A stretch of 64,000 bases of DNA, taken from NCBI GenBank assembly GCA_963662625.1, contig OY759726.1, forward strand, positions 704,001 through 768,000. The letters run 5' to 3'. Source of the DNA: Nitrosopumilus sp. (GTDB lineage Archaea > Thermoproteota > Nitrososphaeria > Nitrososphaerales > Nitrosopumilaceae). The position numbers and the translations under genes are program-made. This document shows positions 14,000 through 27,294 of the stretch, one piece after another (the stretch's first letter is position 1; the number at the start of each line of letters is the position of its first letter). The notes beneath the pieces are model-generated. The model did no database searches, had not been told where the DNA came from, and saw only the letters and a program-made list of their open reading frames with translations.

Positions 14000-15424
14000 T
14001 ATTTCACCTCCCTTAGTTTCATATGTATTGTTACCCAAAATGCCTTTTAAGGAAAGCGGACAGTTGTGCGTGCTCCCTAGAGTGACGCTCACAAATAATT
14101 TCGCCTCCTGAATGGCCATACGGCAGCACGTCGCATGATCCGGCACGATCCACGGATTATGGCCCGGCCGTGCCGCTTGGAGTCCCTGCGCCCCAGCCTC
14201 CCCCGCCCACCGGTCGTGCTGGGCCGCCGTGGGCCTTACCCCCTGCACGATGTTCTCCCACCTGCGCGAGCGCGCGTGGTCCCCGGACGTCCCCTTGAAC
14301 GCCGACATGGTTATCCCGGTCGGCCGCCTCCTGCCGTACCCCTTCCTGGCCTCCCGGTACCGGGCATTCTCCTCCCTCTCCCTCGTGCCCGTCCTGCCGG
14401 CGCGCGCCTCCGGGCCGCCCCCCGGCCGGCCCCGCGCCGCCCCGCCCCACGCGCCGCCAGCGCCCCTGCCCCAGGCGGCGGGCGCCACCCTGGCCGGGAT
14501 GATCGGCCCCACGCCCATGCCGCGGCACCTCCGCACGTTGTCCCGCGACGCGTACGCCCCGTCCGCGATCAGGCGCGCCCCGCGGGGGCCGGGCGGCTGG
14601 CCGCACTGCAGCGCGAGCGGCGCCACGCCGCTCGCGGGGAGGTTGGGCGGGGGCGAGCCCGCGCGCGGCAGGGGATCCCCCGCCGCGGCGGCCTTCCCGC
14701 GGATCAGCGCCATGCGCCTGTCCTGCTTCCCGCCCTGCTTCCCCTCCTGCTTCCCGCCCTGCTTCCCGCCCTGCTTCCCCTCTTGCCGCTTCCCGTCACG
14801 CGGCCCCGCCACGGTTCCCAGGAGCTCCTTCAGCATGGGGGAGTCGCCCGTCCTGTCGTCGGTCACCACCGCCGCGGGCATCTTCTTCGTGTCGGCGTCG
14901 GCCAGCAGGTGCAGCCTGGCGAACCCGCGCCTCGCCTCCCGCTTCTTCCGTATCCACTCGCCCCGGTTGCACTGCTTCAGGCCGGTCGAGTCCGCCAGCA
15001 GGGTCATGGGCTGGCCGCCGCCGGAGACGCGGACGACTCCCCCGCCGATGCCCGCGCCGGGGCGCGCCATCCTCCTGGCCAGCACCGAGTAGTGCGGCGC
15101 GCCGCGCCCCCCCAGCATCCCCGCGAGGAGCCCGGACAGCTGCCTGTACTGGACCCCGAGCGAGGTCCTCACCGCGGCGGCGGCCATGACCAGCGCCCAG
15201 GCGTACCTGAACGGGGCGCCCTCCTTGCCGGCGTTGGCCTCCCTCAGGTCGTCCCCCGGCCGGGGCCATGCGACACCGCCAGGCCCCGCCCGCGCCTGGC
15301 GCATTTCTCGTTGTCGGTCGCAGCCAACGGGGACGGTGCGCGGCCGTGATCCAAGGCCTTTTCGGTTTGGCGTGGTTGGGCCCGGGGTTCAACTGTTCAG
15401 GCCCGGCAATTTCTGGCAGTTGTG

Positions 15425-16831
15425 CACCTATGTTAACCACTCAGGCGTAGTTGCCGCAATGCATCCCGCGGTTTTTCCGATCCGTGACTGGGTTGCATGG
15501 CATGAGATTTATAGCTAGCGCTGGCAAGACGATCCGGGATGCGGGCAGCGCGGGGGGCCGCCCCCGGCGCGCCTTCCCCGTCCCGGCCAGCTTGCGCCGG
15601 CACGGCCCCTCGTTGCGGGACTCGTAGGGTGTCTTGGTGGTCAGCATGTGCCACATTATGGTGACCATCTTGTGGGCCACCACCATGATTGCCGGCCCAT
15701 GCTTGTCCGCGTGCCTCCGGCGCGCGGACGCATACACGGCTTCCATCCTGGCGTCGTGCCGCACGGCGGTGTTCGCGGCCTCGCGCATGGCCCAGTTGAC
15801 CAGGCTGCCGGGGTCGATCTTCTTGATCCTCCCCGCGTACGGCCGGTTCCCCGACTGGCAGGCCGCCGGGCACAGCCCGGCCCACGACACCATCTGCCTT
15901 GGCCCCCTGAACCTGGAGACGTCCCCGATCCCGGGGGCCATCAGCACCGCGGTGAACGTGCCGACGCCGGTCATGCTGGCCAGCAGCCTCGCGTCACCGT
16001 TGTGGGCGGCCCCCGTCCCGGGGAGCCCCTCCGTCACGGAGATCTCCTCCGTCAGGTGCCTCACCTGCCGGGCGCACTGGCCCAGGACCAACCCGTCGTG
16101 CCCAGAGCCCGGCCCCGCGGATTCCAGCTGCCCCAGGGCCTTTTCGGAGTGCATGGTGGAGGCGTCCATTTGGATGTCGTGGCGGTCCAGGAGGCTGCGG
16201 GCGCGGCTTGTCACGCGCGTCCTGTCCCGGGCCAGCCTCACCCTCTGCCTGACCATCGCGCGTATCCCCCTGGTGTGGCCCGGGGGGACGTAGCACTCCG
16301 GTATCATGTCCATCCCCGGCACCTGCGCTATCTTCTCTGCGTCAATCCTGTCGGTCTTCTTGGCGGTCCTGGCTATCAGGGCCATCTTGTACGTGTTGGC
16401 CAGTTTGATGCCGGTCCCGGCCGCCTCGAAGGCGTCAAACGTCTTGTTCCACATGTTGCCAGTCGTCTCGCAGGCGGCCCTGCAGGGGCCGCCGCCCAGG
16501 TACCTGCGCGCCATCACCCCTGCGAACTTCGCCGCGCCGTCCCGGGTGTTGGGGTACTGCCCCCTCTCGAGAACCTTCCCGTTCCCGTCCACCACGCACG
16601 CGCCGCGCTTTCTCTTCCCCATGCCTGTCCCTATGCTTGTCTTTCTCATCCTTTCCTATCACCTCCTTTCGGATGTCTGACGGATCGGAAGCTGCACACA
16701 CCTATCAGGGCGCGAAGCCCAGTGACACGGCAGCTCGGATTGCCCCATTCAACAGAAAGGGCGCCAGGCCCACGCGCTACCAGGGGTCGATCCATCGGGG
16801 CAACTACGCCTGGGTGGTTATCATGTGTTCA
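15425..16831 (-). mobile_element. IS110-family element copy A (transposase 15441..16649)
   Basis: ACETTG, KTDRIDA, GVG, QSG motifs; CA core at both ends; reverse-complement match to 24472-25878. Confidence 0.92.
16679..16796 (-). ncRNA. Putative bridge RNA of IS110 copy A
   Basis: Reverse complement of 24507-24624. Confidence 0.7.
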
Positions 16832-16886
16832 ACAGACTACAGGCAAGGGTAATTATTAAAGCGCCGCCCGGTTTGCTTTATGGCTT

Positions 16887-17946
16887 TGTAGTAAATGCGG
16901 ATGTGGTCAATTGTACGGAAAGTCGGTCCGCGCCGGATCGAGAGGACTGTATCCGACTATTTTAGGCTGTACCGATCACGGAAGGCCATGACAGGAAGAC
17001 TTGCTGGGGGGTCCCGGAAGTACCTGGTCAGGCAGCGAGAGAAGGGCGTGCCGTCATCCCGGGTGGCGGCGGACCTGGGAATCACCGCCAGGCACGCACG
17101 GAGGATGCGGGCGAGGTTCCTGTAGACCGGAACGACGGTGGCTAGGATGGGCAGGCCGCGCGCCTGCATGAGTGCCGCCCAGATACGGCTGGCTACAGAC
17201 GCGCACCCGAGGCACCGGTGGGGGTGGTGCGCACCGCGAGGCGCCTCAGGAGGGGCCATGATATAAGCTACTGCTCCGCATGCCGGATACTGGAGAAGGC
17301 CGGGGCGGTGGCCGCGTCTGCCGCAAAACCGGGGAGGCGCGAGCGGGTGCGCTACGAGCGCAAATGCCCGGACGCCATGTGGCACGTCGACTGGCACGAG
17401 ATGAAGGACCCCCGGTTCAGGGGCCTCCAGCTGGTCGCGTACCTGGACGACGCCTCGCGGTGCGCGGTGGCCGCGCGCGTGTTCACGCAGGCCACGCCGG
17501 GGAACGCCGTGCTGGCGCTCAGGGACGCGATCGGGCGGTTCGGCACGCCGGCCACCGTGCTCCCCGGCAACGGCTCGTGCTTCGTGGGCCGGAACGGCCG
17601 CAGGAAGGCCCCTCCCCGGCCGTGGAAGCCCACCGCGTTCGAGGCGGAGCTGCCGGGCCTCGGGATCGAGCTCATAAACTCCAGGCCGCACCACCCCCAG
17701 ACCAACGGGAAGATCGAGAGGTTCTTCCGGAGCGTGGAGGACGGGACATGGCACTACGAGAGCATGTCCGAGTACATGGCGTACTACAACGAGGACAGGC
17801 CGCGCTTCTCCCTGGACATCGACAACTACCAGACCCCGCTGAAGGCCTTCCATGACAAGGAGGCCGTGGCAGCGATCAGGGAGAGCAACCCGGGATGGAT
17901 GGAGGCGGAGGCGGATGACTAGCGGACCGACTTTTCATATACTACA
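16887..17946 (+). mobile_element. IS481-family element with pseudogenised transposase
   Basis: Ends TGTAGTAAATG / CATATACTACA; WHVD, YLDDASR, PQTNGKIERF motifs; TAG at 17123-17125, frameshift near 17215, second Asp replaced (PGNG). Confidence 0.88.
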
Positions 17947-17995
17947 AAGACTGCGAATGTAAAACAAGTGATATATATTTGAAGGACACAATACA

Positions 17996-18640
17996 ATGGA
18001 ATTGGGCTTTATAGATATTTTCAAGAAAAGCAGGAGACAGATAAACAGGGAGAACCAAGAACAGGGTAGGAGGGGAGAGAGGCAAATCAGGGAAAAATAC
18101 GAGTTCTCTGGCCATGAGGTTGAAAGGACCGGCAGGGGCCACGACTTTAAGGTGTCTAAGACCAACTGGCTTACAGGTAAAAAAGAAATCAAATACGTAG
18201 AAGTCAAGACCGGCAATTCAAGGCAGTCGCCACTGCAGAAAAAAAAGATGAGGCGATTGGGCGAGAGGTATGTGGTGGAAAGGGTGGGCACTGGGCTGTT
18301 TGGGCTTGGATCTACCACCACATACGGCACTCCCAAGAACCCACCTGCTGGAACCTGGGGCCCGGGCTCCCTGCTGGGCGGATCCGCCCCGAGGAAGAAG
18401 AGGTCGGCCAAAAAGCCTTCCAGCAGCATCTGGGGCCCGGGCTCCCTGCTGGGCGGATCCGCCCCGAGGAAGAAGAGGTCGGCCAAAAAGCCTTCCAGCA
18501 GCATCTGGGAATCGCCAAAAAGGAAGAGCAATCCCGGAAGGAAGAGCCCAACAAAATCATCTGCCAGCATCTGGGGCTCGGGTGTCTCTACCAGAAGAAA
18601 GAGCAGGGCCAAAGGATCTGGTTTCGGGATGTGGTCCTAG
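17996..18640 (+). CDS. PD-(D/E)XK-type nuclease domain with a basic repetitive tail
   Basis: GRRGE..GHDF..YVEVKTG..SPLQ, then WG...KK repeats. Confidence 0.6.
   Translation: MELGFIDIFKKSRRQINRENQEQGRRGERQIREKYEFSGHEVERTGRGHDFKVSKTNWLTGKKEIKYVEVKTGNSRQSPLQKKKMRRLGERYVVERVGTGLFGLGSTTTYGTPKNPPAGTWGPGSLLGGSAPRKKRSAKKPSSSIWGPGSLLGGSAPRKKRSAKKPSSSIWESPKRKSNPGRKSPTKSSASIWGSGVSTRRKSRAKGSGFGMWS
18355..18509. repeat. Perfect 75-bp in-frame tandem duplication
   Basis: 18355-18429 equals 18430-18504, encoding WGPGSLLGGSAPRKKRSAKKPSSSI twice. Confidence 0.9.
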
Positions 18641-19146
18641 CTCTAGGTAACGCAATACAGGTTTATTGGCACACTCTTGCCACTATCTAGTTGCAGGTGA
18701 CTGTATGGACCATGTACGTGGCAGGCTTTCAGGTCGCTGCCAGCTGCGCATCCGACTTGGCGTGGCCTAGGCCATTAGCGGCCTGGGCGGCAGGCACGCA
18801 TGGCAACTAACGTCACGATTAATATTTTGCACTGCACCACACAAGGATACGCAAGGACGAGGACATGGCAGAAAAACACCCCAGAAAGGGCAGGAGGTGC
18901 CAGCACAGGCATTCGCAAGGACGACTCCCAGTCCGTGGGAAGCCGTCACCAACGAACGGCAGAGGGGCGAGTACCATGCCGCACGTGGGGAGGCGGACTG
19001 GTCTTCGTAGGCCGCACTCTAGGGGGACGATTGGATGCTCCCACCTTTATGCCACCACGGGGGGCGTTATTAGTGCAGAAAATGCGGACATGTGCTGAAT
19101 GTAAGGAACGTGGGTAAGGCCACGGTGCCCGGATCAGGCTACAGAC

Positions 19147-19335
19147 GTGTGGCTTGATAGCACGTCGGGGTTGGGCTTTGAGGGCATCTGCAGCACCATC
19201 TTCGGCAGGTGCGGGTTCAAGACTAAGAAGATTGGCGGCACCTCCGACGGCGGACACGACATACTGGTTTGGGGAGATTCAGGCAAGATGGTCGTGGAGT
19301 GCAAGCACCAAGAAAAGAAGGCGGGGCGGCCTTAG
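19147..19335 (+). pseudogene. Mrr-like restriction endonuclease fragment
   Basis: SGLGFE..GF..SDGGHDI..VVECKH..GRP followed by a premature stop. Confidence 0.65.
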
Positions 19336-19608
19336 GCCGAAGTCCGGGGGGCGCGAGGTTGACGGGGAAACGCTTGACGGCCATCCCGAACCCAAGGTCA
19401 CGGCGGGGCGAAGACGTCGGGAGGGGGACCTGCGTGGCGGGGCCATCTCCGAATCGGGGCGCTCCGTGCCAGCCGCCGCCGGGCCGGATCCGGTCAGGCT
19501 TGCAGCCGACTCCAAAAGAGCGCGGCGGGGCGTCGGCCGATCCCCCTCAGTGGGGCCGGATCCGGCGCGCGGGTACTCGCTTTAAATATTCCCGCGCCAG
19601 ACCTTGGC

Positions 19609-20542
19609 CATGACGGCTGCCCGAAAGGACGGCGGGTACGAGGATCCCGCGCCGGACGACGTGATCGACGAGATCGAGGACCGTATGGGCGACGACGATC
19701 TTGCCGGCGCCCTGCTTGCAACAAACAGGGAACTGGCGAGGACGCCGGACAGCATAGAGCTCCACTCCCTGAAGGGCGAGATCCTCTCCAGCACGGGGAG
19801 GTACGGCGAGGCGTCGGCCGCGTATGACCGGATCCTGGAGTTGGAGCCGGACGATCCGGAGGCGTGGATCCACAAGAGCTTCGTCTTTTTAGCGCTGGAC
19901 CGCCCCGAGGACAGCCTGGATGCAGCAGACAGGGCGATTGGGCTTGGCCTGGACGACTCCGTGGCTCTGGTGGCGAGGGCCGAGGCGCTGCTGGAGCTGG
20001 GAAGGCACGGCGAGGCGATGAAGGTAGTCAACGACGTGCTCGCGGGGGACCCGGGGCACGTCGACGTGCTGGGCCTCGAGGCCGAGATCCTCTCGGCGAT
20101 GGGCAGGCATGGCGAGGCCGCGGCCCTGCTGGAAAAGCTTTCGGGCTGGGATCCGGGGTCGGCCGAGGCGCTGGTCCTGCTCTCCGGCGAGCACATGATG
20201 GCGGGGGACTTTGGGAGGGCCCTGGAGGTCGCAGACAGGGCCGTGGCGCTCGACGGGGACGATCCCGCGGCATGGGAGATCAAGGGCGCGTCGCTATACG
20301 AGCTTGGCAGGCCGGAGGAGGCCCTGGAGTGCATCCTGAATGCCCAAGACATGGATCCTGCAGGCGGCGAGACGTGGTACCAAAAGGCAAGGATCCTCGC
20401 TGGCGGCGAGCGGGACGGGGCGCTTGACGCCCTTCTTGTGGCCGTCTCGATAAATCCCGACAACAAGAAAAGGGCTGGCGCGGACGGGTCGTTTGCGGGC
20501 CTCCGGCAGGACGCGAGGTTCAAGAAGATGACCGGCCCCTAG
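19609..20542 (+). CDS. Tetratricopeptide repeat protein (start approximate)
   Basis: Repeated AW..KG..L..LGR.EEAL...D.P units. Confidence 0.85.
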
Positions 20543-20724
20543 CGGGATCCCGGGGCGCGGGGGCCGCGGTGCCGGGCGGCCTGCGCGCATGGCCGGCCCA
20601 AGAAGGGGGCACCGCATCCCAAAGACGGAAAGGCCGTCAGCCGTGGCGCGATCGCTGCGTGCGGGGGCAGGCGGGCAGCTGCCCGGGGGCAGGCCGGAGG
20701 GCGCTGGCCGCGGGCTCCCCGGCG

Positions 20725-22218
20725 TCATACTAGGACGAGGAAGAGAGGAACGGGGATCATCGTGCGCCCGTTCTTCGCCGAGAGATCACGCTTTGTCAGC
20801 ACCAGCCCCTCGGAGACGCCGCTGGCCTTCTTAAAGTCAATCAGCCCCTGCAGGTCGCCGGAACCAATCTGGTTTTGGTACTTTACTTCCACGGGGATCG
20901 TCCGATCGCCGGGGTATATGACAAAGTCCACCTCGCGGCCGCCGCCTCCCCGCCAGTAGGACACCGATTCCCGGTAGTCAAAGCTCATCCTAAACCTGCT
21001 CAGGCCGAAGGCAAGCCTTACAGAGTGATCCGCGACCACGTTCTCGACGAGCTTGCCGGTCAGGGCCTCGTCCTGGAGCGCCTTCAAGGAGAATTCAAAG
21101 GGCTCTTCCCTGCGGCTCATGGCGTTCAGTGCGTGGAAGAAGAACGGGTCCTGAAAGTAGATTTTCTTCGGCGATGGGTGGTGCGGCCGCCTCTGCTTGG
21201 CGTCGTACCTGTGCATGTATAATAGCACGAACGCGCCGGAGAGGGTCTTCGTATAATCCTCCACGGTGTGGTGGCTTCCCACGTCCGTGCCTTTTTTGAG
21301 CGACTGCCAAGAGGTCGGGGAGCACAGGCTCCGGACATAGTTGGGGGTCAGCTGCGGGAGGTAGTCCCCCCTGTGAACGCGCCCCATGTCCCCCTTGATG
21401 GAGTCCAGGCACGTGTGGTAAGTCGACGCGGGGATGTTCCCGTTTTCCAATAGATCGTTGACGGCCGGCGGGACGCCCCCCGTAATCAGGTAGTTCCCGA
21501 AGTGCTTGTCCAGGGCGTCCTGGTATGCCGAAAGCGAGGCGACGGTGCCGTCGATCTCGCCCCCAAGCAGGGCATCCAGCAGGTCGTGGCGGGTCGACAG
21601 GGCATGCATGTCGTTGTCTTTGATGAATTTCCCGAGTTCGGGATCCACCGACGAGACGTACTCGGCGAATTTCATCGGGGGCATGATCTTGTCCAAGGAA
21701 TCGCCCTGTGCGGCCCCCCTTCTGCCCGGCATCTGTTCCCCGCCCGGCCTCAAGTCAGCAGAGTGGGAGCCTGCCGCAATCACGGTGCAGTTGTCCAGCT
21801 TGCCCCGGTCCTTGAGTTTTTTGATGGCGTTTTGCCAGCCTTGAATGTTTGAAATTTCGTCAAGAAACAGGATGGCCCTGCTGCCTTTTCTGAACGGCGC
21901 GCTCCTGTCAAGGTACGCGCCGACCACGCCGGAGACGTCCGCGGGAGATCTCTCCACGTCAAACGAATAGTACATGAGGGTCCACGGATCCCGCCCCTCC
22001 CGGAGGCGCTCCCTGATCATCAGCTTGGCCATGGTCGTCTTGCCCACCTGCCTGGGCCCGCGAAGCGTGTAGATCAGATCCTCCTCAAGGAATTTTTTTT
22101 GGATCCTGGGTTTCCACTTTAGCGCGGAGTCCTCCCAACGGCGTATGGAGTGGTCGCCATCGATTGCTGCAGGATCCTTCCACCACGGGTTATATCCCAG
22201 CAGCTCGTTATATGACAT
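20725..22218 (-). CDS. AAA_14 ATPase with DUF4143 and a C-terminal nuclease-like motif
   Basis: NPWW, GPRQVGKTT, LFLDEI, YLITGG.P, KKIYFQDP, EVDFV..PVEVK. Confidence 0.88.
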   Translation of the reverse strand: MSYNELLGYNPWWKDPAAIDGDHSIRRWEDSALKWKPRIQKKFLEEDLIYTLRGPRQVGKTTMAKLMIRERLREGRDPWTLMYYSFDVERSPADVSGVVGAYLDRSAPFRKGSRAILFLDEISNIQGWQNAIKKLKDRGKLDNCTVIAAGSHSADLRPGGEQMPGRRGAAQGDSLDKIMPPMKFAEYVSSVDPELGKFIKDNDMHALSTRHDLLDALLGGEIDGTVASLSAYQDALDKHFGNYLITGGVPPAVNDLLENGNIPASTYHTCLDSIKGDMGRVHRGDYLPQLTPNYVRSLCSPTSWQSLKKGTDVGSHHTVEDYTKTLSGAFVLLYMHRYDAKQRRPHHPSPKKIYFQDPFFFHALNAMSRREEPFEFSLKALQDEALTGKLVENVVADHSVRLAFGLSRFRMSFDYRESVSYWRGGGGREVDFVIYPGDRTIPVEVKYQNQIGSGDLQGLIDFKKASGVSEGLVLTKRDLSAKNGRTMIPVPLFLVLV

Positions 22219-22227
22219 CACGCGCCG

Positions 22228-22312
22228 CTGCCAGTCCCTTTATAAGCATGGTTTTCTGAACTGCCAGTCCTTTTATAACCATTGGTGCCAACTGGTGCCA
22301 GTTCATTTATAA
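22228..22312. promoter_or_regulatory. Three TGCCAGTyCnTTTATAA repeats containing TATA boxes, in a divergent promoter region
   Basis: Copies at 22228-22245, 22261-22278 and 22295-22312. Confidence 0.65.
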
Positions 22313-22334
22313 ATCAACATGAAAGGCAGGGCCC

Positions 22335-22475
22335 ATGGTGGTGCCAAGGGAGGGCATCAGGGCATGCATGAAGTGCGGGTGCGTGTACTCGGAGATATCG
22401 TCGAACAACGCAATGAGGTGTCCCGTCTGCAAGAACATGCTGGGGGAGAAGATCGGCATAGTCCGGAACGGCTGA
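22335..22475 (+). CDS. 46-aa zinc-ribbon protein
   Basis: CMKC..CPVC; TTTATAA about 25 nt upstream. Translated by hand. Confidence 0.6.
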   Translation: MVVPREGIRACMKCGCVYSEISSNNAMRCPVCKNMLGEKIGIVRNG

Positions 22476-22597
22476 CGCGGTGATCGGTCGCGGCACCGCC
22501 GAGGGGCCGCTGTGGCAGGCCGGCCGCGGCTCCAAGCCGCACGGCGGTGTAAAAAACAGCCGTAAACAGTTATAATTACAGCGGCGAGACCCCAAGC

Positions 22598-23146
22598 ATG
22601 GAAGAGACCTCCGTGTTCCCCGGGGACAGGATAGCCTCCATAGAGGAGTACGAGGCGGGCCACAACGCCTTTGACGACGGCGACATGGTCCGCGCGGCCA
22701 CCATAGGCAGCGTCGACATAGACCGGGAGACGCGCGTCGCGAGCATCAAGCACCCCAAGGGCCAAGCCATGCCGAGGGTCGGCGACACCGTCATCGGCAC
22801 GGTCAGCGCCGTGATGTCGTCGATGTTCGCGGTGATAATAGACTACATCAACGGCAAGCCGACCGTGTCCAAGGTGGAGTGCATCTGCTCGACGCGGGAC
22901 GCCCGGAGGAGGAACGTCGCGCTCGCAAACGACATAGTCGCGCTGAAGATCCTCAACCACCTCAACGGCACGATACACGCCACCGTGGACGAGCCCCAGC
23001 TGGGGGTCCTGTTCACAAAGTGCAGGAAGTGCGGCGGCGAGGTGGTCCAGATGCGCGACGCCATAAAGTGCAAGGAGTGCGCGTGGATCGACGACAGGAA
23101 GCTCTCAAGGAAGTTCGGCAACGGCGACTTTGTGAGACTGGGATGA
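22598..23146 (+). CDS. csl4: Exosome complex RNA-binding protein Csl4
   Basis: VFPGD..EEY, S1 domain, LGVLFTKCRKC..CKEC..RKLS. Confidence 0.9.
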   Translation: MEETSVFPGDRIASIEEYEAGHNAFDDGDMVRAATIGSVDIDRETRVASIKHPKGQAMPRVGDTVIGTVSAVMSSMFAVIIDYINGKPTVSKVECICSTRDARRRNVALANDIVALKILNHLNGTIHATVDEPQLGVLFTKCRKCGGEVVQMRDAIKCKECAWIDDRKLSRKFGNGDFVRLG

Positions 23147-23958
23147 TCCGCGTCTCGTTCCAGGGGGAGCGTGGCGCGTACAGCGAGGCTGCCGCAAGGT
23201 CGTTCTTCGGGGGGGAGATCGAGGCCGTCCCCACGCAGACGTTCGCCGAGGCCCTCGAGCGCGCCTCGTCCGGGGATACCGGCTACGCCGTGCTCCCGGT
23301 GGAGAACTCGCTGGAGGGGAGCGTGGGGGAGAGCTACGACCTGCTGTACCTGACGGACCTCAGCGCGGTGGGCGAGACGTACCACAGGATAGAGCACTGC
23401 CTGATCGGGACCGGCAGGCTGGGGGGCATCGGGACCGTGTACTCGCACCCGCAGGCGCTGGGCCAGTGCAGGGGGTTTATCGAGAGAAACGGCATGAAGA
23501 CAGTGCCCGCGTACGACACCGCGGGGAGCGTGAAGATGATAAAGTCGATCGGCCGGGAGGACGTGGCCTGCATAGCGAGCAGGGAGGCGTCCGGGATCTA
23601 CGGCGTCCCAGTGGTGGCAAGCGACATCGCGAACAACCCCAACAACTACACCCGGTTCCTGGTGCTGTCCGGGGGGGCCAGCCCGGAGACCGGCAGCGAC
23701 AAGACGTCGGTGATATTCTCCATAAAGCACGAGCCGGGCTCCCTGTTCAGGGTGATAGGGAGGTTCCACGCGAGCGGCGTGAACCTCACCAAGATAGAGT
23801 CCAGGCCGGCCGGGACGGACGCCTGGGAGTACATATTTTACGTGGACTTTGAGGGGCACGCCGACAGCCCCGGCATCGCGGAGATGCTCAGGGGACTGGA
23901 GGCGGACACGGTCTCCCTGAAGGTGCTCGGCTCGTACCCCTCGGCCAGGCGCGGCTAG
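23143..23958 (+). CDS. pheA: Prephenate dehydratase
   Basis: FQGERGAYSE, PVENSLEGSV, SHPQALGQC, NYTRF, LTKIESRP. Confidence 0.95.
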   Translation: MIRVSFQGERGAYSEAAARSFFGGEIEAVPTQTFAEALERASSGDTGYAVLPVENSLEGSVGESYDLLYLTDLSAVGETYHRIEHCLIGTGRLGGIGTVYSHPQALGQCRGFIERNGMKTVPAYDTAGSVKMIKSIGREDVACIASREASGIYGVPVVASDIANNPNNYTRFLVLSGGASPETGSDKTSVIFSIKHEPGSLFRVIGRFHASGVNLTKIESRPAGTDAWEYIFYVDFEGHADSPGIAEMLRGLEADTVSLKVLGSYPSARRG

Positions 23959-24419
23959 AAGCCCCTGGGCCTCCTCAGCGTAAAGGCCGTGCTGAACCCG
24001 ATGATCACCACGCCGGACGTTATCACGATGATGTGGTAGGTGAACAGGATCGGGTCGGTGGTGATCTCGAAGGTGGCGTCCACCACCACGTCCGACGGGC
24101 CGGTGTTGCGCACGTTGATGTACGTGACGCCGTCCTGGGCGTGGCTCCATTCCTGGTAGGCCTCCCCCTCGAACGAGTCGGTGATGTCCAAGCCGCCGGC
24201 GGGGCTCTTGAGCACGAGCTCAAAGCTGTCGCCCGTGATCCCCATCTTCTGGGTGCCGCCCCGATCGGAGGTGACCTGGTACGAGGTGAACTCCCCCGGC
24301 CCGAGCGTGTCGCTGACCGGCACCACCTGGAGGCCGACGTCGGAGACGAACGAGAACACCCCGATGGCTATGATCCCTACCCCGATGATCATCCCGACGA
24401 CCGTCCACTTTGATATCAT
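23955..24419 (-). CDS. Hypothetical membrane protein with N- and C-terminal TM helices
   Basis: MISKWTVVGMIIGVGII... is the plausible 3' part of shadow ORF 23955..25655. Confidence 0.75.
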   Translation of the reverse strand: MISKWTVVGMIIGVGIIAIGVFSFVSDVGLQVVPVSDTLGPGEFTSYQVTSDRGGTQKMGITGDSFELVLKSPAGGLDITDSFEGEAYQEWSHAQDGVTYINVRNTGPSDVVVDATFEITTDPILFTYHIIVITSGVVIIGFSTAFTLRRPRGF

Positions 24420-24471
24420 GGTGTGGAGTCCCCGCGCGCCGCTTAAAAAACTAGCTCCGCGCGTAGTCTGT

Positions 24472-25878
24472 TGAACACATGATAACCACCCAGGCGTAGT
24501 TGCCCCGATGGATCGACCCCTGGTAGCGCGTGGGCCTGGCGCCCTTTCTGTTGAATGGGGCAATCCGAGCTGCCGTGTCACTGGGCTTCGCGCCCTGATA
24601 GGTGTGTGCAGCTTCCGATCCGTCAGACATCCGAAAGGAGGTGATAGGAAAGGATGAGAAAGACAAGCATAGGGACAGGCATGGGGAAGAGAAAGCGCGG
24701 CGCGTGCGTGGTGGACGGGAACGGGAAGGTTCTCGAGAGGGGGCAGTACCCCAACACCCGGGACGGCGCGGCGAAGTTCGCAGGGGTGATGGCGCGCAGG
24801 TACCTGGGCGGCGGCCCCTGCAGGGCCGCCTGCGAGACGACTGGCAACATGTGGAACAAGACGTTTGACGCCTTCGAGGCGGCCGGGACCGGCATCAAAC
24901 TGGCCAACACGTACAAGATGGCCCTGATAGCCAGGACCGCCAAGAAGACCGACAGGATTGACGCAGAGAAGATAGCGCAGGTGCCGGGGATGGACATGAT
25001 ACCGGAGTGCTACGTCCCCCCGGGCCACACCAGGGGGATACGCGCGATGGTCAGGCAGAGGGTGAGGCTGGCCCGGGACAGGACGCGCGTGACAAGCCGC
25101 GCCCGCAGCCTCCTGGACCGCCACGACATCCAAATGGACGCCTCCACCATGCACTCCGAAAAGGCCCTGGGGCAGCTGGAATCCGCGGGGCCGGGCTCTG
25201 GGCACGACGGGTTGGTCCTGGGCCAGTGCGCCCGGCAGGTGAGGCACCTGACGGAGGAGATCTCCGTGACGGAGGGGCTCCCCGGGACGGGGGCCGCCCA
25301 CAACGGTGACGCGAGGCTGCTGGCCAGCATGACCGGCGTCGGCACGTTCACCGCGGTGCTGATGGCCCCCGGGATCGGGGACGTCTCCAGGTTCAGGGGG
25401 CCAAGGCAGATGGTGTCGTGGGCCGGGCTGTGCCCGGCGGCCTGCCAGTCGGGGAACCGGCCGTACGCGGGGAGGATCAAGAAGATCGACCCCGGCAGCC
25501 TGGTCAACTGGGCCATGCGCGAGGCCGCGAACACCGCCGTGCGGCACGACGCCAGGATGGAAGCCGTGTATGCGTCCGCGCGCCGGAGGCACGCGGACAA
25601 GCATGGGCCGGCAATCATGGTGGTGGCCCACAAGATGGTCACCATAATGTGGCACATGCTGACCACCAAGACACCCTACGAGTCCCGCAACGAGGGGCCG
25701 TGCCGGCGCAAGCTGGCCGGGACGGGGAAGGCGCGCCGGGGGCGGCCCCCCGCGCTGCCCGCATCCCGGATCGTCTTGCCAGCGCTAGCTATAAATCTCA
25801 TGCCATGCAACCCAGTCACGGATCGGAAAAACCGCGGGATGCATTGCGGCAACTACGCCTGAGTGGTTAACATAGGTG
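24472..25878 (+). mobile_element. IS110-family element copy B (transposase 24654..25862)
   Basis: TG core at 24472-24473 and 25877-25878; 26-bp subterminal IRs at 24479-24504 and 25848-25873; translation identical to copy A. Confidence 0.92.
24507..24624 (+). ncRNA. Putative bridge RNA with target- and donor-binding loops
   Basis: Closing stem GATGGATCG/CGATCCGTC; two arms, each with GGGC-N5-GCCC followed 2 nt later by a 7-mer matching the target (TCTGTTG) or the donor (ATAGGTG). Confidence 0.72.
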
Positions 25879-27294
25879 CACAACTCGGCACGATCCCCGG
25901 GCCGTGGCCAGGCCGTGCCGCTTGGAGTCCCTACGCCCCCGCCTCACCCGCCCACCGGTCGTGCTGGGCCATCCTGAGCCTTGCCTCCTGCACGATGTTC
26001 TCCCACCTGCGCGAGTGCACGTGGTCCCCGAACATCCTCTTGAACGCCGATATGATTATCTCGATCAGCCACCTCCTGCCGTACCCCTTCCTAGCCTCCC
26101 GGTACCGGACGTTCTCCTCCCTCTCCCTCGTGCCCACCCTGCCGGCGCGCGCCTCCGGGCCGCCCCCCAGCTGGTCCCGCACCGCCTCGCCCCACGCGCC
26201 GCCGGTGCCCTTGCCCCTGGCGGTGGACGCCACCTTGACCGGGATGATAGGCCCCACGCCCATGTCGCGGCACCTCCGCATGTTGTCCCGCGACGCGTAC
26301 GCCCCGTCCGCGATCAGGCGCGCCCCGTGGGAGCCGGGCGGCTGGCCGCACTGCAGCGCGAGCGGCGCCACGCCGCTCGCGAGGAGGTTGGGCGGGGGCG
26401 AGCCCACGCGCGGCAGGGGATCCCCAGCCGCGGCTGCCTTCCCGCGGATCAGCGCCATGCGCCTGTCCTGCTTCCCCGCCGGCTTCCCGTCCGGCTTCCC
26501 GCCACGCGGCTCCACCACGGTTCCCAGGAGCTCCTTCAGCATGGGGGAGTCGCCCGTCCTGTCGTCGGTCACCACCGCCGCGAGTATCTTCTTCGTGTCG
26601 GCGTCGGCCAGCAGGTGCAGCTTGACGAACCCGCGCTTCACCTTCCACTTCTTCCGTATCCACTCGCCCCGGTTGCACTGCTTCAGGCCCGTGGCGTCGG
26701 CCAGCAGGGTCATGGGCTGGCCGCCGCCGGAGACGCGGACGACTCCCCCGCCGATGTCCACGTCGAGGCGCGCCATCCTCCTGGCCAGCACCGAGTAGTG
26801 CGGCGCGCCGTGCCCCCCCAGCATCCCCGCGAGGAGCCCGGACAGCTGCCTGTACCGGGCCCCGAGCGAGGTCCTCACCGCGGCGGCGGCCATGACCAGC
26901 GCCCCGGCGTACCTGAACGGGGCGCCCTCCTTGCCGGCGTTGGCCTCCCTCAGGTCGTCCTCCCAGCCGGGGTCATACGACACAGCCAGGCCCCTCCCGC
27001 GCCTGACGTATTTCTCGTTGTCGGTCGCAGCCAACGGGGACGGTGCGCGGCCGTGATCCAAGGCCTTTTCGGTTTGACATGGTTGGGCCGGGGGTTCAAC
27101 TGTTTAGACCCGGCAATTTCTGGCAGTTGTGCAACAGACTACCGCGCGATGCGTTCCCGGGAGGCGGCGCGGGGGGCCTGGGACCTGGCATACCTACCAC
27201 AGACACAGGAAACTAGCGGATCGATGTGGCTATCCACGGACTCGCACGTCAGTGTTACCCATGCCCAGTCAGAAAATCCTAGAAGCTGCAGGCC

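Follow-up and report, generated by a model that had tools for sequence, protein, structure and literature searches.

We analyzed a 64,000-nt stretch of a Nitrosopumilus sp. genome (contig OY759726.1 of assembly GCA_963662625.1, positions 704,001 to 768,000, forward strand), hereafter the window, in whose coordinates features are given. Judged from sequence, positions 24507-24624 of its plus strand very probably represent the bridge RNA gene (such RNAs are also named seekRNAs) of an IS110-family insertion sequence (IS) at 24474-25878 in a Nitrosopumilaceae-like archaeon. It is a known kind of RNA-guided DNA recombination system with an unusual layout, and the host is an ammonia-oxidising archaeon. 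A preliminary description, made from the letters alone, had read the locus as an archaeal bridge RNA of about 120 nt. The size agreed with our results, as the RNA core has 118 nt and our covariance model, R1, has 121 positions. The archaeal assignment held as well. The small-subunit ribosomal RNA scored 1456 bits with an archaeal model and 1085 bits with a bacterial one, and relatives of the element came mostly from Nitrosopumilaceae, Nitrososphaerales, and Bathyarchaeia. The bridge-RNA interpretation itself was supported by an IS110-family transposase open reading frame (ORF) and by covariation of four guide strands with DNA.

The element and its RNA scaffold

The genome, a single contig of 1.86 Mb, carries eight near full-length copies of the element (c1 to c8) and fragments. 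Copy c1 occupies 24474-25878 (+) and is 1405 bp long, including one TG core. Its ends were set by the eight copies, whose flanks differ, and by uninterrupted target sites. The flanks diverge exactly between TAGTyTGT-TG and AACACATGATAACC on the left and exactly between GGTTAACATAGG-TG and CRCRAC on the right. Because divergence falls exactly at TG on both sides, the core is TG, which bears out the preliminary description. Inside the ends lie subterminal inverted repeats of 13 bp. The left one, ATGATAACCACCC (24479-24491, +), matches the reverse complement of the right one, GAGTGGTTAACAT (25861-25873, +), at 11 of 13 positions. The right end extends about 130 bp past the natural stop of the recombinase gene (25745). 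It contains a T/A-rich stretch, TTAACATA, where relatives keep TTTTAACAT or TTTACAT.

The RNA sits in the left non-coding end of the element, 5' of the gene for a DEDD recombinase, and 29 nt separate its 3' end from the ATG. The recombinase ORF of c1 (24654-25862, +) has 402 aa and is decayed. It matched NCBIfam NF033542, 'IS110 family RNA-guided transposase' (E 1e-56, 192.6 bits, cut-off 140), and the Pfam families PF01548 (DEDD_Tnp_IS110, E 2.2e-17) and PF02371 (Transposase_20, E 1e-16). A Shine-Dalgarno sequence, GGAGGTGA, was found at 24637-24644.

The RNA core (24507-24624, +) is made up of a closing stem, a predicted target-binding arm (arm 1), and a predicted donor-binding arm (arm 2), all read on the plus strand. 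The closing stem has 9 bp, formed by GATGGATCG (24507-24515) and CGATCCGTC (24616-24624). Arm 1 has a basal stem, CCCC (24517-24520) with GGGG (24557-24560), and the hairpin GGGC-CTGGC-GCCC (24532-24544). Arm 2 has the basal stem AGCTGC (24568-24573) with GCAGCT (24608-24613) and the hairpin GGGC-TTCGC-GCCC (24583-24595). The short stem of each arm leads through a large internal loop to a G+C hairpin. Each loop carries a 7-mer in an equivalent position, 2 bases after the hairpin and 3 before the basal stem. Closing stem, arms, hairpins, and 7-mers all lay where the preliminary description had put them, base for base. The hairpin motif GGGCYTSGCGCCCT occurs four times in the window, twice per element copy, against 0.32 expected, and none of 100 shuffles reached four. 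The other two occurrences belong to the second window copy, c2 (15425-16829, -), whose bridge RNA stretch (16679-16796, -) reads identical to that of c1.

By protein search, 8 of the 61 genomes covered within the same order had relatives, the genome of the window (G000) included. The 80 related loci came from Nitrosopumilaceae, Nitrososphaerales, and Bathyarchaeia records, from one Methanosarcinales metagenome-assembled genome, and from three contigs binned as bacteria. The proposed structure, with 27 pairs, was scored on 14 aligned RNAs. Of its cells, 89.9% were paired, and 12 of the 27 pairs showed changes on both sides. None of 500 shuffles reached any of the five measures, and slid controls were 29-49% paired. 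RNAalifold found both arms unaided. The hairpins of relatives varied with pairing kept (GGGC/GCCC, GTGC/GCAC, GATC/GATC, and GGTC/GACC). In G042, G056, and G002, the most distant members, the closing stem was wholly different in letters and still paired.

Model R1 matched 74 of the 80 related loci at E 3e-9 or better. All 74 hits lay on the recombinase strand and ended shortly 5' of the gene. Among the six loci without a hit, five were fragments, with the protein match starting at residue 18-170, and one started at a contig end. The scaffold is conserved among relatives, and the variable part is the four loop strands. In one locus (L127:1099-1168), the RNA lacks the whole segment that separates the arm-1 hairpin from the arm-2 3' strand, a loss that looks like recombination between its two similar hairpins. 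R1 was also run with filters off on four distant relatives with about 30% protein identity: ISHvo10 of Haloferax, a Haloarcula plasmid, Rhizobium, and Sphingobium. No match was found there (best 7.7 bits, E 0.3), indicating that these elements carry another RNA type or none like R1. ISHvo10, also at about 30% identity, is the nearest named relative of the recombinase.

Loop strands and the DNA they match

All four loop strands co-vary with DNA. The guide test covered 70 loci, which were the 74 hits minus L127, with one arm deleted, and L101, L105, and L071, with little or no upstream sequence. The loci are partly non-independent, as many are copies within one genome, and they hold 34 distinct left guides and 32 distinct right guides. 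Guide covariation with targets across homologues was a check that the preliminary description had proposed, and the outcome was positive for all four strands.

The arm-1 3' strand, TCTGTTG (24547-24553, +), is the predicted left-target guide. It is identical at 7 of 7 positions to 24467-24473, the left flank plus TG, as the preliminary description had noted. The corresponding 7-mer of each relative was sought in the 65 nt upstream of its RNA, and the guides of other loci served as the null (3,638 pairings). Exact matches were found at 36 of the 70 loci and matches with at most one mismatch at 60, whereas the null gave 0.4% and 8.9%. The match mostly lay 39-50 nt before the RNA, directly preceding the left end, and 34 different 7-mers occurred among relatives. 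The AA after TCTGTTG (24554-24555) repeats the first bases of the left end, in a handshake-like position. In relatives, the 2-3 bases after this guide also echo how the left end begins (AAT with AAC or AAT). In the Bathyarchaeia clade, ACT follows the guide and the left end starts with ACT.

The arm-2 3' strand, ATAGGTG (24598-24604, +), is the predicted left-donor guide. Again in line with the preliminary description, it is identical at 7 of 7 positions to 25872-25878, the right end plus TG. When this 7-mer was sought downstream of the gene, 9 of the 70 loci, mostly with little downstream sequence, had no match within one mismatch. In 48 of the remaining 61 loci the match was exact, and it followed the T/A-rich subterminal repeat. 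The guide classes ATAGATG, ATAGGTG, ATGGATG, and ATGAGTG accompany the right ends.

The arm-1 5' strand, GGTAGCGCG (24522-24530, +), is the predicted right-target guide and complements the top strand of core plus right target. The test used 46 loci whose right end was exact and whose strand had 9 nt, and these made 38 distinct pairs. In relatives, an average of 6.3 of 9 positions formed Watson-Crick pairs with TG plus right flank; guides borrowed from other loci averaged 3.5. At least 7 of 9 positions paired in 47% of the pairs, against 1.2% in the null, and four pairs reached 9 of 9. In c1 this guide ends in CG where relatives mostly carry CA. The arm-2 5' strand, CGTGTCACT (TGTGTCACT in the intact copy c3; 24574-24582, +), is the predicted right-donor guide and pairs with the left end, TGTGT with ACACA. 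Its signal was weaker, with a mean of 4.5 of 8 in relatives and 2.9 in the null (26 pairs). Matching changes were TGTAT/ATACA, TGCGT/ATGCA, TAAAG/CTTTA, and TATC/GATA. The preliminary description had stated that the strands opposite the 7-mers match only partly, with A->G and T->C differences, and this was confirmed. Such differences, in particular the CG end of the right-target guide, fit the one-directional A>G/T>C process described below.

The target of c1, TAGTCTGT-TG-CACAACT, is the terminal inverted repeat of an IS5-like element. Its left part, TAGTCTGT with the core TG (24464-24473, +), is the first 10 bp of that repeat. The uninterrupted 16-mer TAGTCTGTTGCACAAC was found 14 times exactly in the genome, together with variants. 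For a donor of right end, TG, and left end (RE-TG-LE), the target would be TAGTCTGTTGCACAACT. The uninterrupted sites stand at both ends of a 1.27-1.31 kb element whose ORF encodes a DDE_Tnp_1 transposase (E 5.9e-21), indicating that the IS110 element inserts 10 bp inside the terminal inverted repeat of this host IS. The remainder of the host IS hit by c1 is at 25877-27141 (+), with its transposase ORF at 25931-27061 (-).

From these matches a mechanism can be proposed by analogy with IS621. Once transcribed, the RNA would be bound by the recombinase. Arm 1 would read the target. Its 7-nt 3' strand equals left flank plus TG, so it would pair with the bottom strand, and its 9-nt 5' strand would pair with the top strand on the right side. 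Arm 2 would read the donor, the joined ends RE-TG-LE, with its 3' strand equal to right end plus TG and its 5' strand pairing with the left end. Recombinase subunits on arm 1 and arm 2 would bring the excised, circular element into synapsis with TAGTCTGT-TG-CACAACT, and strands would be exchanged at TG via a Holliday junction.

The right subterminal repeat (25865-25873) is T/A-rich across relatives (TTAACATA, TTTTAACATA, and TTTTACATA). In a joined circle it would stand about 45 nt 5' of the RNA. By the model of the junction promoter of bacterial IS110, it may be an archaeal TATA box that activates RNA and recombinase only after circle formation. One contig in one sequencing run (X3) joins 25879 to 24472, that is, the right end to the left end, which is a weak hint of a circle or tandem form.

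Several observations weigh against a bridge RNA here. The single-sequence minimum free energy (MFE) was -53.1 kcal/mol (z -2.42; 2 of 200 shuffles were equally good), and that structure retained the closing stem but paired the guide strands with each other. The two-arm fold scored -39.8 kcal/mol and became the optimum (-41.0 kcal/mol) only with the four guide strands held unpaired. Of the two structural checks named in the preliminary description, covariation supported the two-arm fold and single-sequence folding gave another. RNAalifold paired 5' GGA..G with the linker in place of the closing stem. The strand call from G.U pairs was modest, with 94.6% paired on the plus strand and 92.3% in the reverse complement. 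An Rfam search (E-value mode, 23500-27000) gave three matches with E 3.5-8.7, all below the gathering threshold. The right-target guide of c1 made only 5 Watson-Crick and 2 G.T pairs with TGCACAACT, with 2 mismatches among its 9 positions, and those of L067 and L120 fitted badly (2 of 9 each). Ten of the 70 left-target guides had 2-3 mismatches. The right-donor guide of c1 paired at only 4 of 8 positions (5 of 8 in c3). The arm-1 guides of c7 (TGTATGGTG 5' and CGCCATG 3') disagreed with the c7 flanks. The recombinase of c1 and c2 is without Asp9. Taken literally, the coordinates of the X3 joint make it 3 nt longer than RE-TG-LE predicts. Four runs, from one study, contained the stretch, and none was RNA.

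Some of these points would suit another function for the stem-loops. They could be an end structure recognized by a protein or the 5' leader of the transposase mRNA, with the 7-mers arising by chance or as terminal repeats and having no guide function. The region does belong to the 5' untranslated part, and no terminator precedes the Shine-Dalgarno sequence. The runs, none of them RNA, and the single-sequence MFE, which differs from the two-arm fold, also count in favor of this view. The loop strands, however, are the most variable part of a conserved scaffold, and they change with flanks and ends. Exact left-target matches were observed at 51% of loci, against 0.4% in shuffled pairings. We consider a leader or end structure very improbable.

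If the functional RNA came from the minus strand and regulated the transposase leader in antisense, 92.3% of the pair cells would remain paired. The 89 G.U cells favored the plus strand, and we rejected the minus-strand reading on this ground. In addition, all 74 hits lie on the recombinase strand, and the cores would fall at the 5' ends of the guides, unlike in any bridge RNA described in the available texts. There is very little to recommend such a regulator.

Copy c7 (genome positions 1699627-1701050) and the fragments p13 and p15b carry other arm-1 guides on the same scaffold, with TGTATGGTG or TGTACGGTG as the 5' strand and CGCCATG or GCGCATG as the 3' strand. In c7, the two arm-1 strands could pair together. 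This copy was either inserted by the RNA of another copy or recombined afterwards. Contigs of the four runs were compared with 23900-26500, and the copies were confirmed. Some contigs ended loosely at 24544 and 24552, with the conserved RNA part joined to other upstream letters, and in one variant the arm-1 3' strand read ..TCTAGAGTG. These other arm-1 letters indicated that the same samples also contain variants whose target guides differ.

Decay of the window copies

In both c1 and c2, Asp9 of the recombinase is changed to Gly (codon 24678-24680 in c1, GGC), so that IGTGMGK stands in place of the conserved IGIDIGK of c3. This residue is the first Asp of the DEDD site and is equivalent to D11 of IS621, mutation of which abolishes recombination. 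The loss was judged from an alignment with five relatives and c3. PDB hits, found by sequence, were IS621 and ISCro4 only (E 5e-5 to 7e-5), with the N-terminus unaligned. In addition, the natural stop at codon 364 (25743-25745 in c1) is changed from TGA to CGG in c1 and c2, giving the 402-aa ORF. Copy c3, outside the window, is intact and encodes a 363-aa protein that stops where relatives stop.

Copies c1 and c2 differ from c3 at the same 44 positions, 22 A>G and 22 T>C and nothing else. Only one of the 44 differences between c1 and c3 is inside the RNA (24574, T>C). The c3 protein is nearest to four outgroups; it shares 257 of 355 residues with L052, where c1 shares 230 and c6 shares 141. 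By this sequence comparison, c3 is the ancestral-like state. In the more decayed copies c4 to c8, ATGGGCG replaces ATAGGTG in arm 2, and the closing stems are changed.

Both window copies may be dead relics of a real RNA family, out of transposition; we rate this as close to an even chance, if slightly under it. The Asp9 to Gly change and the stop loss in c1 and c2 point that way, as do the 44 one-directional changes and the lower protein identity to L052 (230 of 355, against 257 in c3). Moreover, c1 and c2 lie in inverted orientation about 7.6 kb from each other, and their identity may come from gene conversion. On the other hand, the RNA has a single base change relative to c3, neither the ends nor the two 7-mer guides are damaged, and c1 and c2 occupy opposite ends of two different host IS copies. 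With intact ends and guides and an RNA one base off c3, c1 could still be moved, and its RNA used, by the c3 recombinase. The c1 RNA, if made at all, could act only with that recombinase.

The same direction of change was seen in other copies and elsewhere in the genome. A>G and T>C made up 92 of the 94 differences from c3 in c4, 199 of 210 in c6, and 186 of 213 in c8. The changes were nested (all 44 of c1 recur in c6) and stood in short clusters, and the changed A's mostly had G or C as 3' neighbor. Element G+C climbs from 63% in c3 to 77% in c6. The host IS family showed the same substitution direction (65:7, 52:5, and 20:2). Copies of related elements in six other genomes were far less one-sided, from 7:6 to 37:19 and at most about 2:1. 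The changes may reflect either a genome-wide bias or a repeat-directed process. G000 has 63.4% G+C (window 62%), and the sampled loci of G001 and G002 have 39-44%. If the grouping of these three genomes is right, this is a very large G+C shift within one genus, and it fits the one-directional A>G/T>C changes. Loss of endonuclease V was considered as the cause and rejected. PF04493 was not found in G000, but it was also not found in 18 of 22 genomes of the same family, including both low-G+C genomes of the same genus. The loss therefore explains nothing by itself.

The surroundings of the two window copies are mirrored. A host IS with c2 (-) occupies 14141-16829, and c1 (+) with a host IS occupies 24464-27141. 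The pair encloses about 7.6 kb (16830-24463), in a composite-like arrangement. The two host IS copies differ, with 91% and 97% identity to a reference copy. Genome-wide, many host-IS copies have a TATA-like A/T stretch (ATAAAA, TATAAA, or TTAAAA) about 14-20 nt before the inverted repeat, in flanks that are otherwise unrelated. This suggests that the host IS prefers sites just downstream of promoters. Before c1, the A/T stretch is CTTAAAAAA (24443-24449).

Guide order and comparison with known systems

The preliminary description had likened the RNA to that of IS621, whose loop geometry and handshake guides are described in PMC11208160 and PMC11208158. Both RNAs are encoded in the left non-coding end, 5' of the gene for a DEDD recombinase that has RuvC-like and Tnp domains, and both have two internal loops, for target and donor, with two guide strands each around a hairpin. 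The guides read a core dinucleotide at their 3' ends, the 5' guide has 9 nt and the 3' guide 7 nt, and the right-donor guide is poorly contiguous. Handshake-like bases 3' of the 3' guide match the other DNA, as the handshake guide of IS621 follows its 3' guide (PMC11208158).

The likeness needs qualification in two respects: the guide order is reversed here, and the recombinase gene of c1 is decayed. In IS621, the 5' strand of each loop reads the left side (bottom strand) and the 3' strand the right side (top strand; PMC11208160). In this RNA, the 5' strand reads the right side (top strand) and the left side is read by the 3' strand. Other differences are the core (TG here, CT in IS621), the length (118-121 nt closed by a terminal stem, against 177 nt), the subterminal inverted repeats (13 bp, against 2-3 bp), the archaeal host, and a protein only remotely similar (phmmer E 7e-5, 25 bits).

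We also asked how a strict IS621-type order would fare, with the 5' loop strand reading the left side (bottom strand) and the 3' strand the right. With sliding allowed, 6 of 10 letters of the 5' strand GGTAGCGCGTG agree with the left target TAGTCTGTTG, and the RNA is in the left end, as in the IS110 group. Yet the exact left-target and left-donor 7-mers are on the 3' strands. In relatives, the 3' strand tracks the left flank, whereas core plus right flank is matched, as reverse complement, by the 5' strand; this order was rejected on these grounds. The rule stated in PMC11208160 is the opposite of the observed order. We give the IS621-type order almost no weight.

In the reversed order observed here, both guides of each loop carry the core at their 3' end. 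Together with the placement of the handshake-like bases after the 3' guide, this makes the arrangement resemble the IS621 complex with the DNA rotated through 180 degrees. The genes for RNA and recombinase would then be inverted relative to the polarity of the crossover site.

The observed order is that of the IS1111 group. In IS1111-type seekRNAs, a top-strand complement precedes a bottom-strand match, whereas in ISEc21, of the IS110 type, a bottom-strand match precedes a top-strand match (PMC11187229). The seekRNAs of ISEc11, ISKpn4, ISPa11, and ISPst6 (PMC11187229) share with this RNA a top-strand complement 5' of the bottom-strand match. The elements are alike in a preference for a specific repeated sequence and in the subterminal inverted repeats, which have 7-17 bp in the IS1111 group and 2-3 bp in the IS110 group. 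They differ in that the RNA here is upstream of the gene and not in a long right end downstream of it. Placement of the IS1111 RNA downstream and of the IS110 RNA upstream of the gene is given in PMC11208160 and PMC11187229 and is repeated in a 2026 review. ISEc21 resembles this element in its short RNA (74 nt, of which 58 nt suffice) upstream of the transposase gene and has the opposite guide order (PMC11187229). Bacterial elements with the same habit, a fixed position in the terminal inverted repeat of another mobile element, have bacterial hosts and targets.

The available texts of Durrant et al. and Siddiquee et al. do not describe the combination of an upstream RNA, the IS1111 guide order, and long subterminal repeats. 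Among the titles found by literature searches on archaeal and thaumarchaeal IS110 bridge RNAs, none described this RNA. Bridge RNAs have been known since 2024 and many have been modeled, so a further IS110 bridge RNA is no surprise. A 2026 preprint (10.64898/2026.10.21.760802) gives guide lengths for 32,190 bridge RNAs under 86 covariance models, and this clade may already lie in published model sets.

C/D-box small RNAs (sRNAs) carry the motifs C (RUGAUGA) and D (CUGA). An archaeal C/D-box sRNA was considered for this locus, where UGAUGG and CUGA are present. It was rejected, as these positions vary freely in relatives (CAGTGG, GGCTGG, and CAACTG at one, and TAAT, GTAT, GAAT, and TCAT at the other). 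The reason for the check was a link between Nop5 and IS110 (10.1101/2024.06.21.599552).

We tentatively propose, as an idea that stands clearly short of an even chance, that this RNA and its relatives of roughly 120 nt, from Nitrososphaeria and Bathyarchaeia, make up a third layout within IS110-family RNA-guided recombination. It would combine an upstream RNA with IS1111 guide polarity and long subterminal repeats, and the clade would be a living intermediate stage in the proposed transfer of the bridge RNA from one end of the element to the other. The scaffold would be compact, closed by a single stem, and natively retargeted (34 left guides) in mesophilic archaea. The imperfect guides of c1 would be footprints of a lineage-specific, one-directional A:T>G:C mutation process.

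The finding adds an archaeal clade with a small, stem-closed scaffold of 118-121 nt that would read about 14 bp of target. Its combination of an upstream RNA with the IS1111-type guide order and long subterminal repeats bears on how the two groups arose from one ancestor. Natural retargeting is also seen, with many different guides that each fit the flank of their own element, in many cases the inverted repeat of a single IS type. Should c3 and its relatives prove active, they would enlarge the set of compact orthologues for use in programmable recombination.

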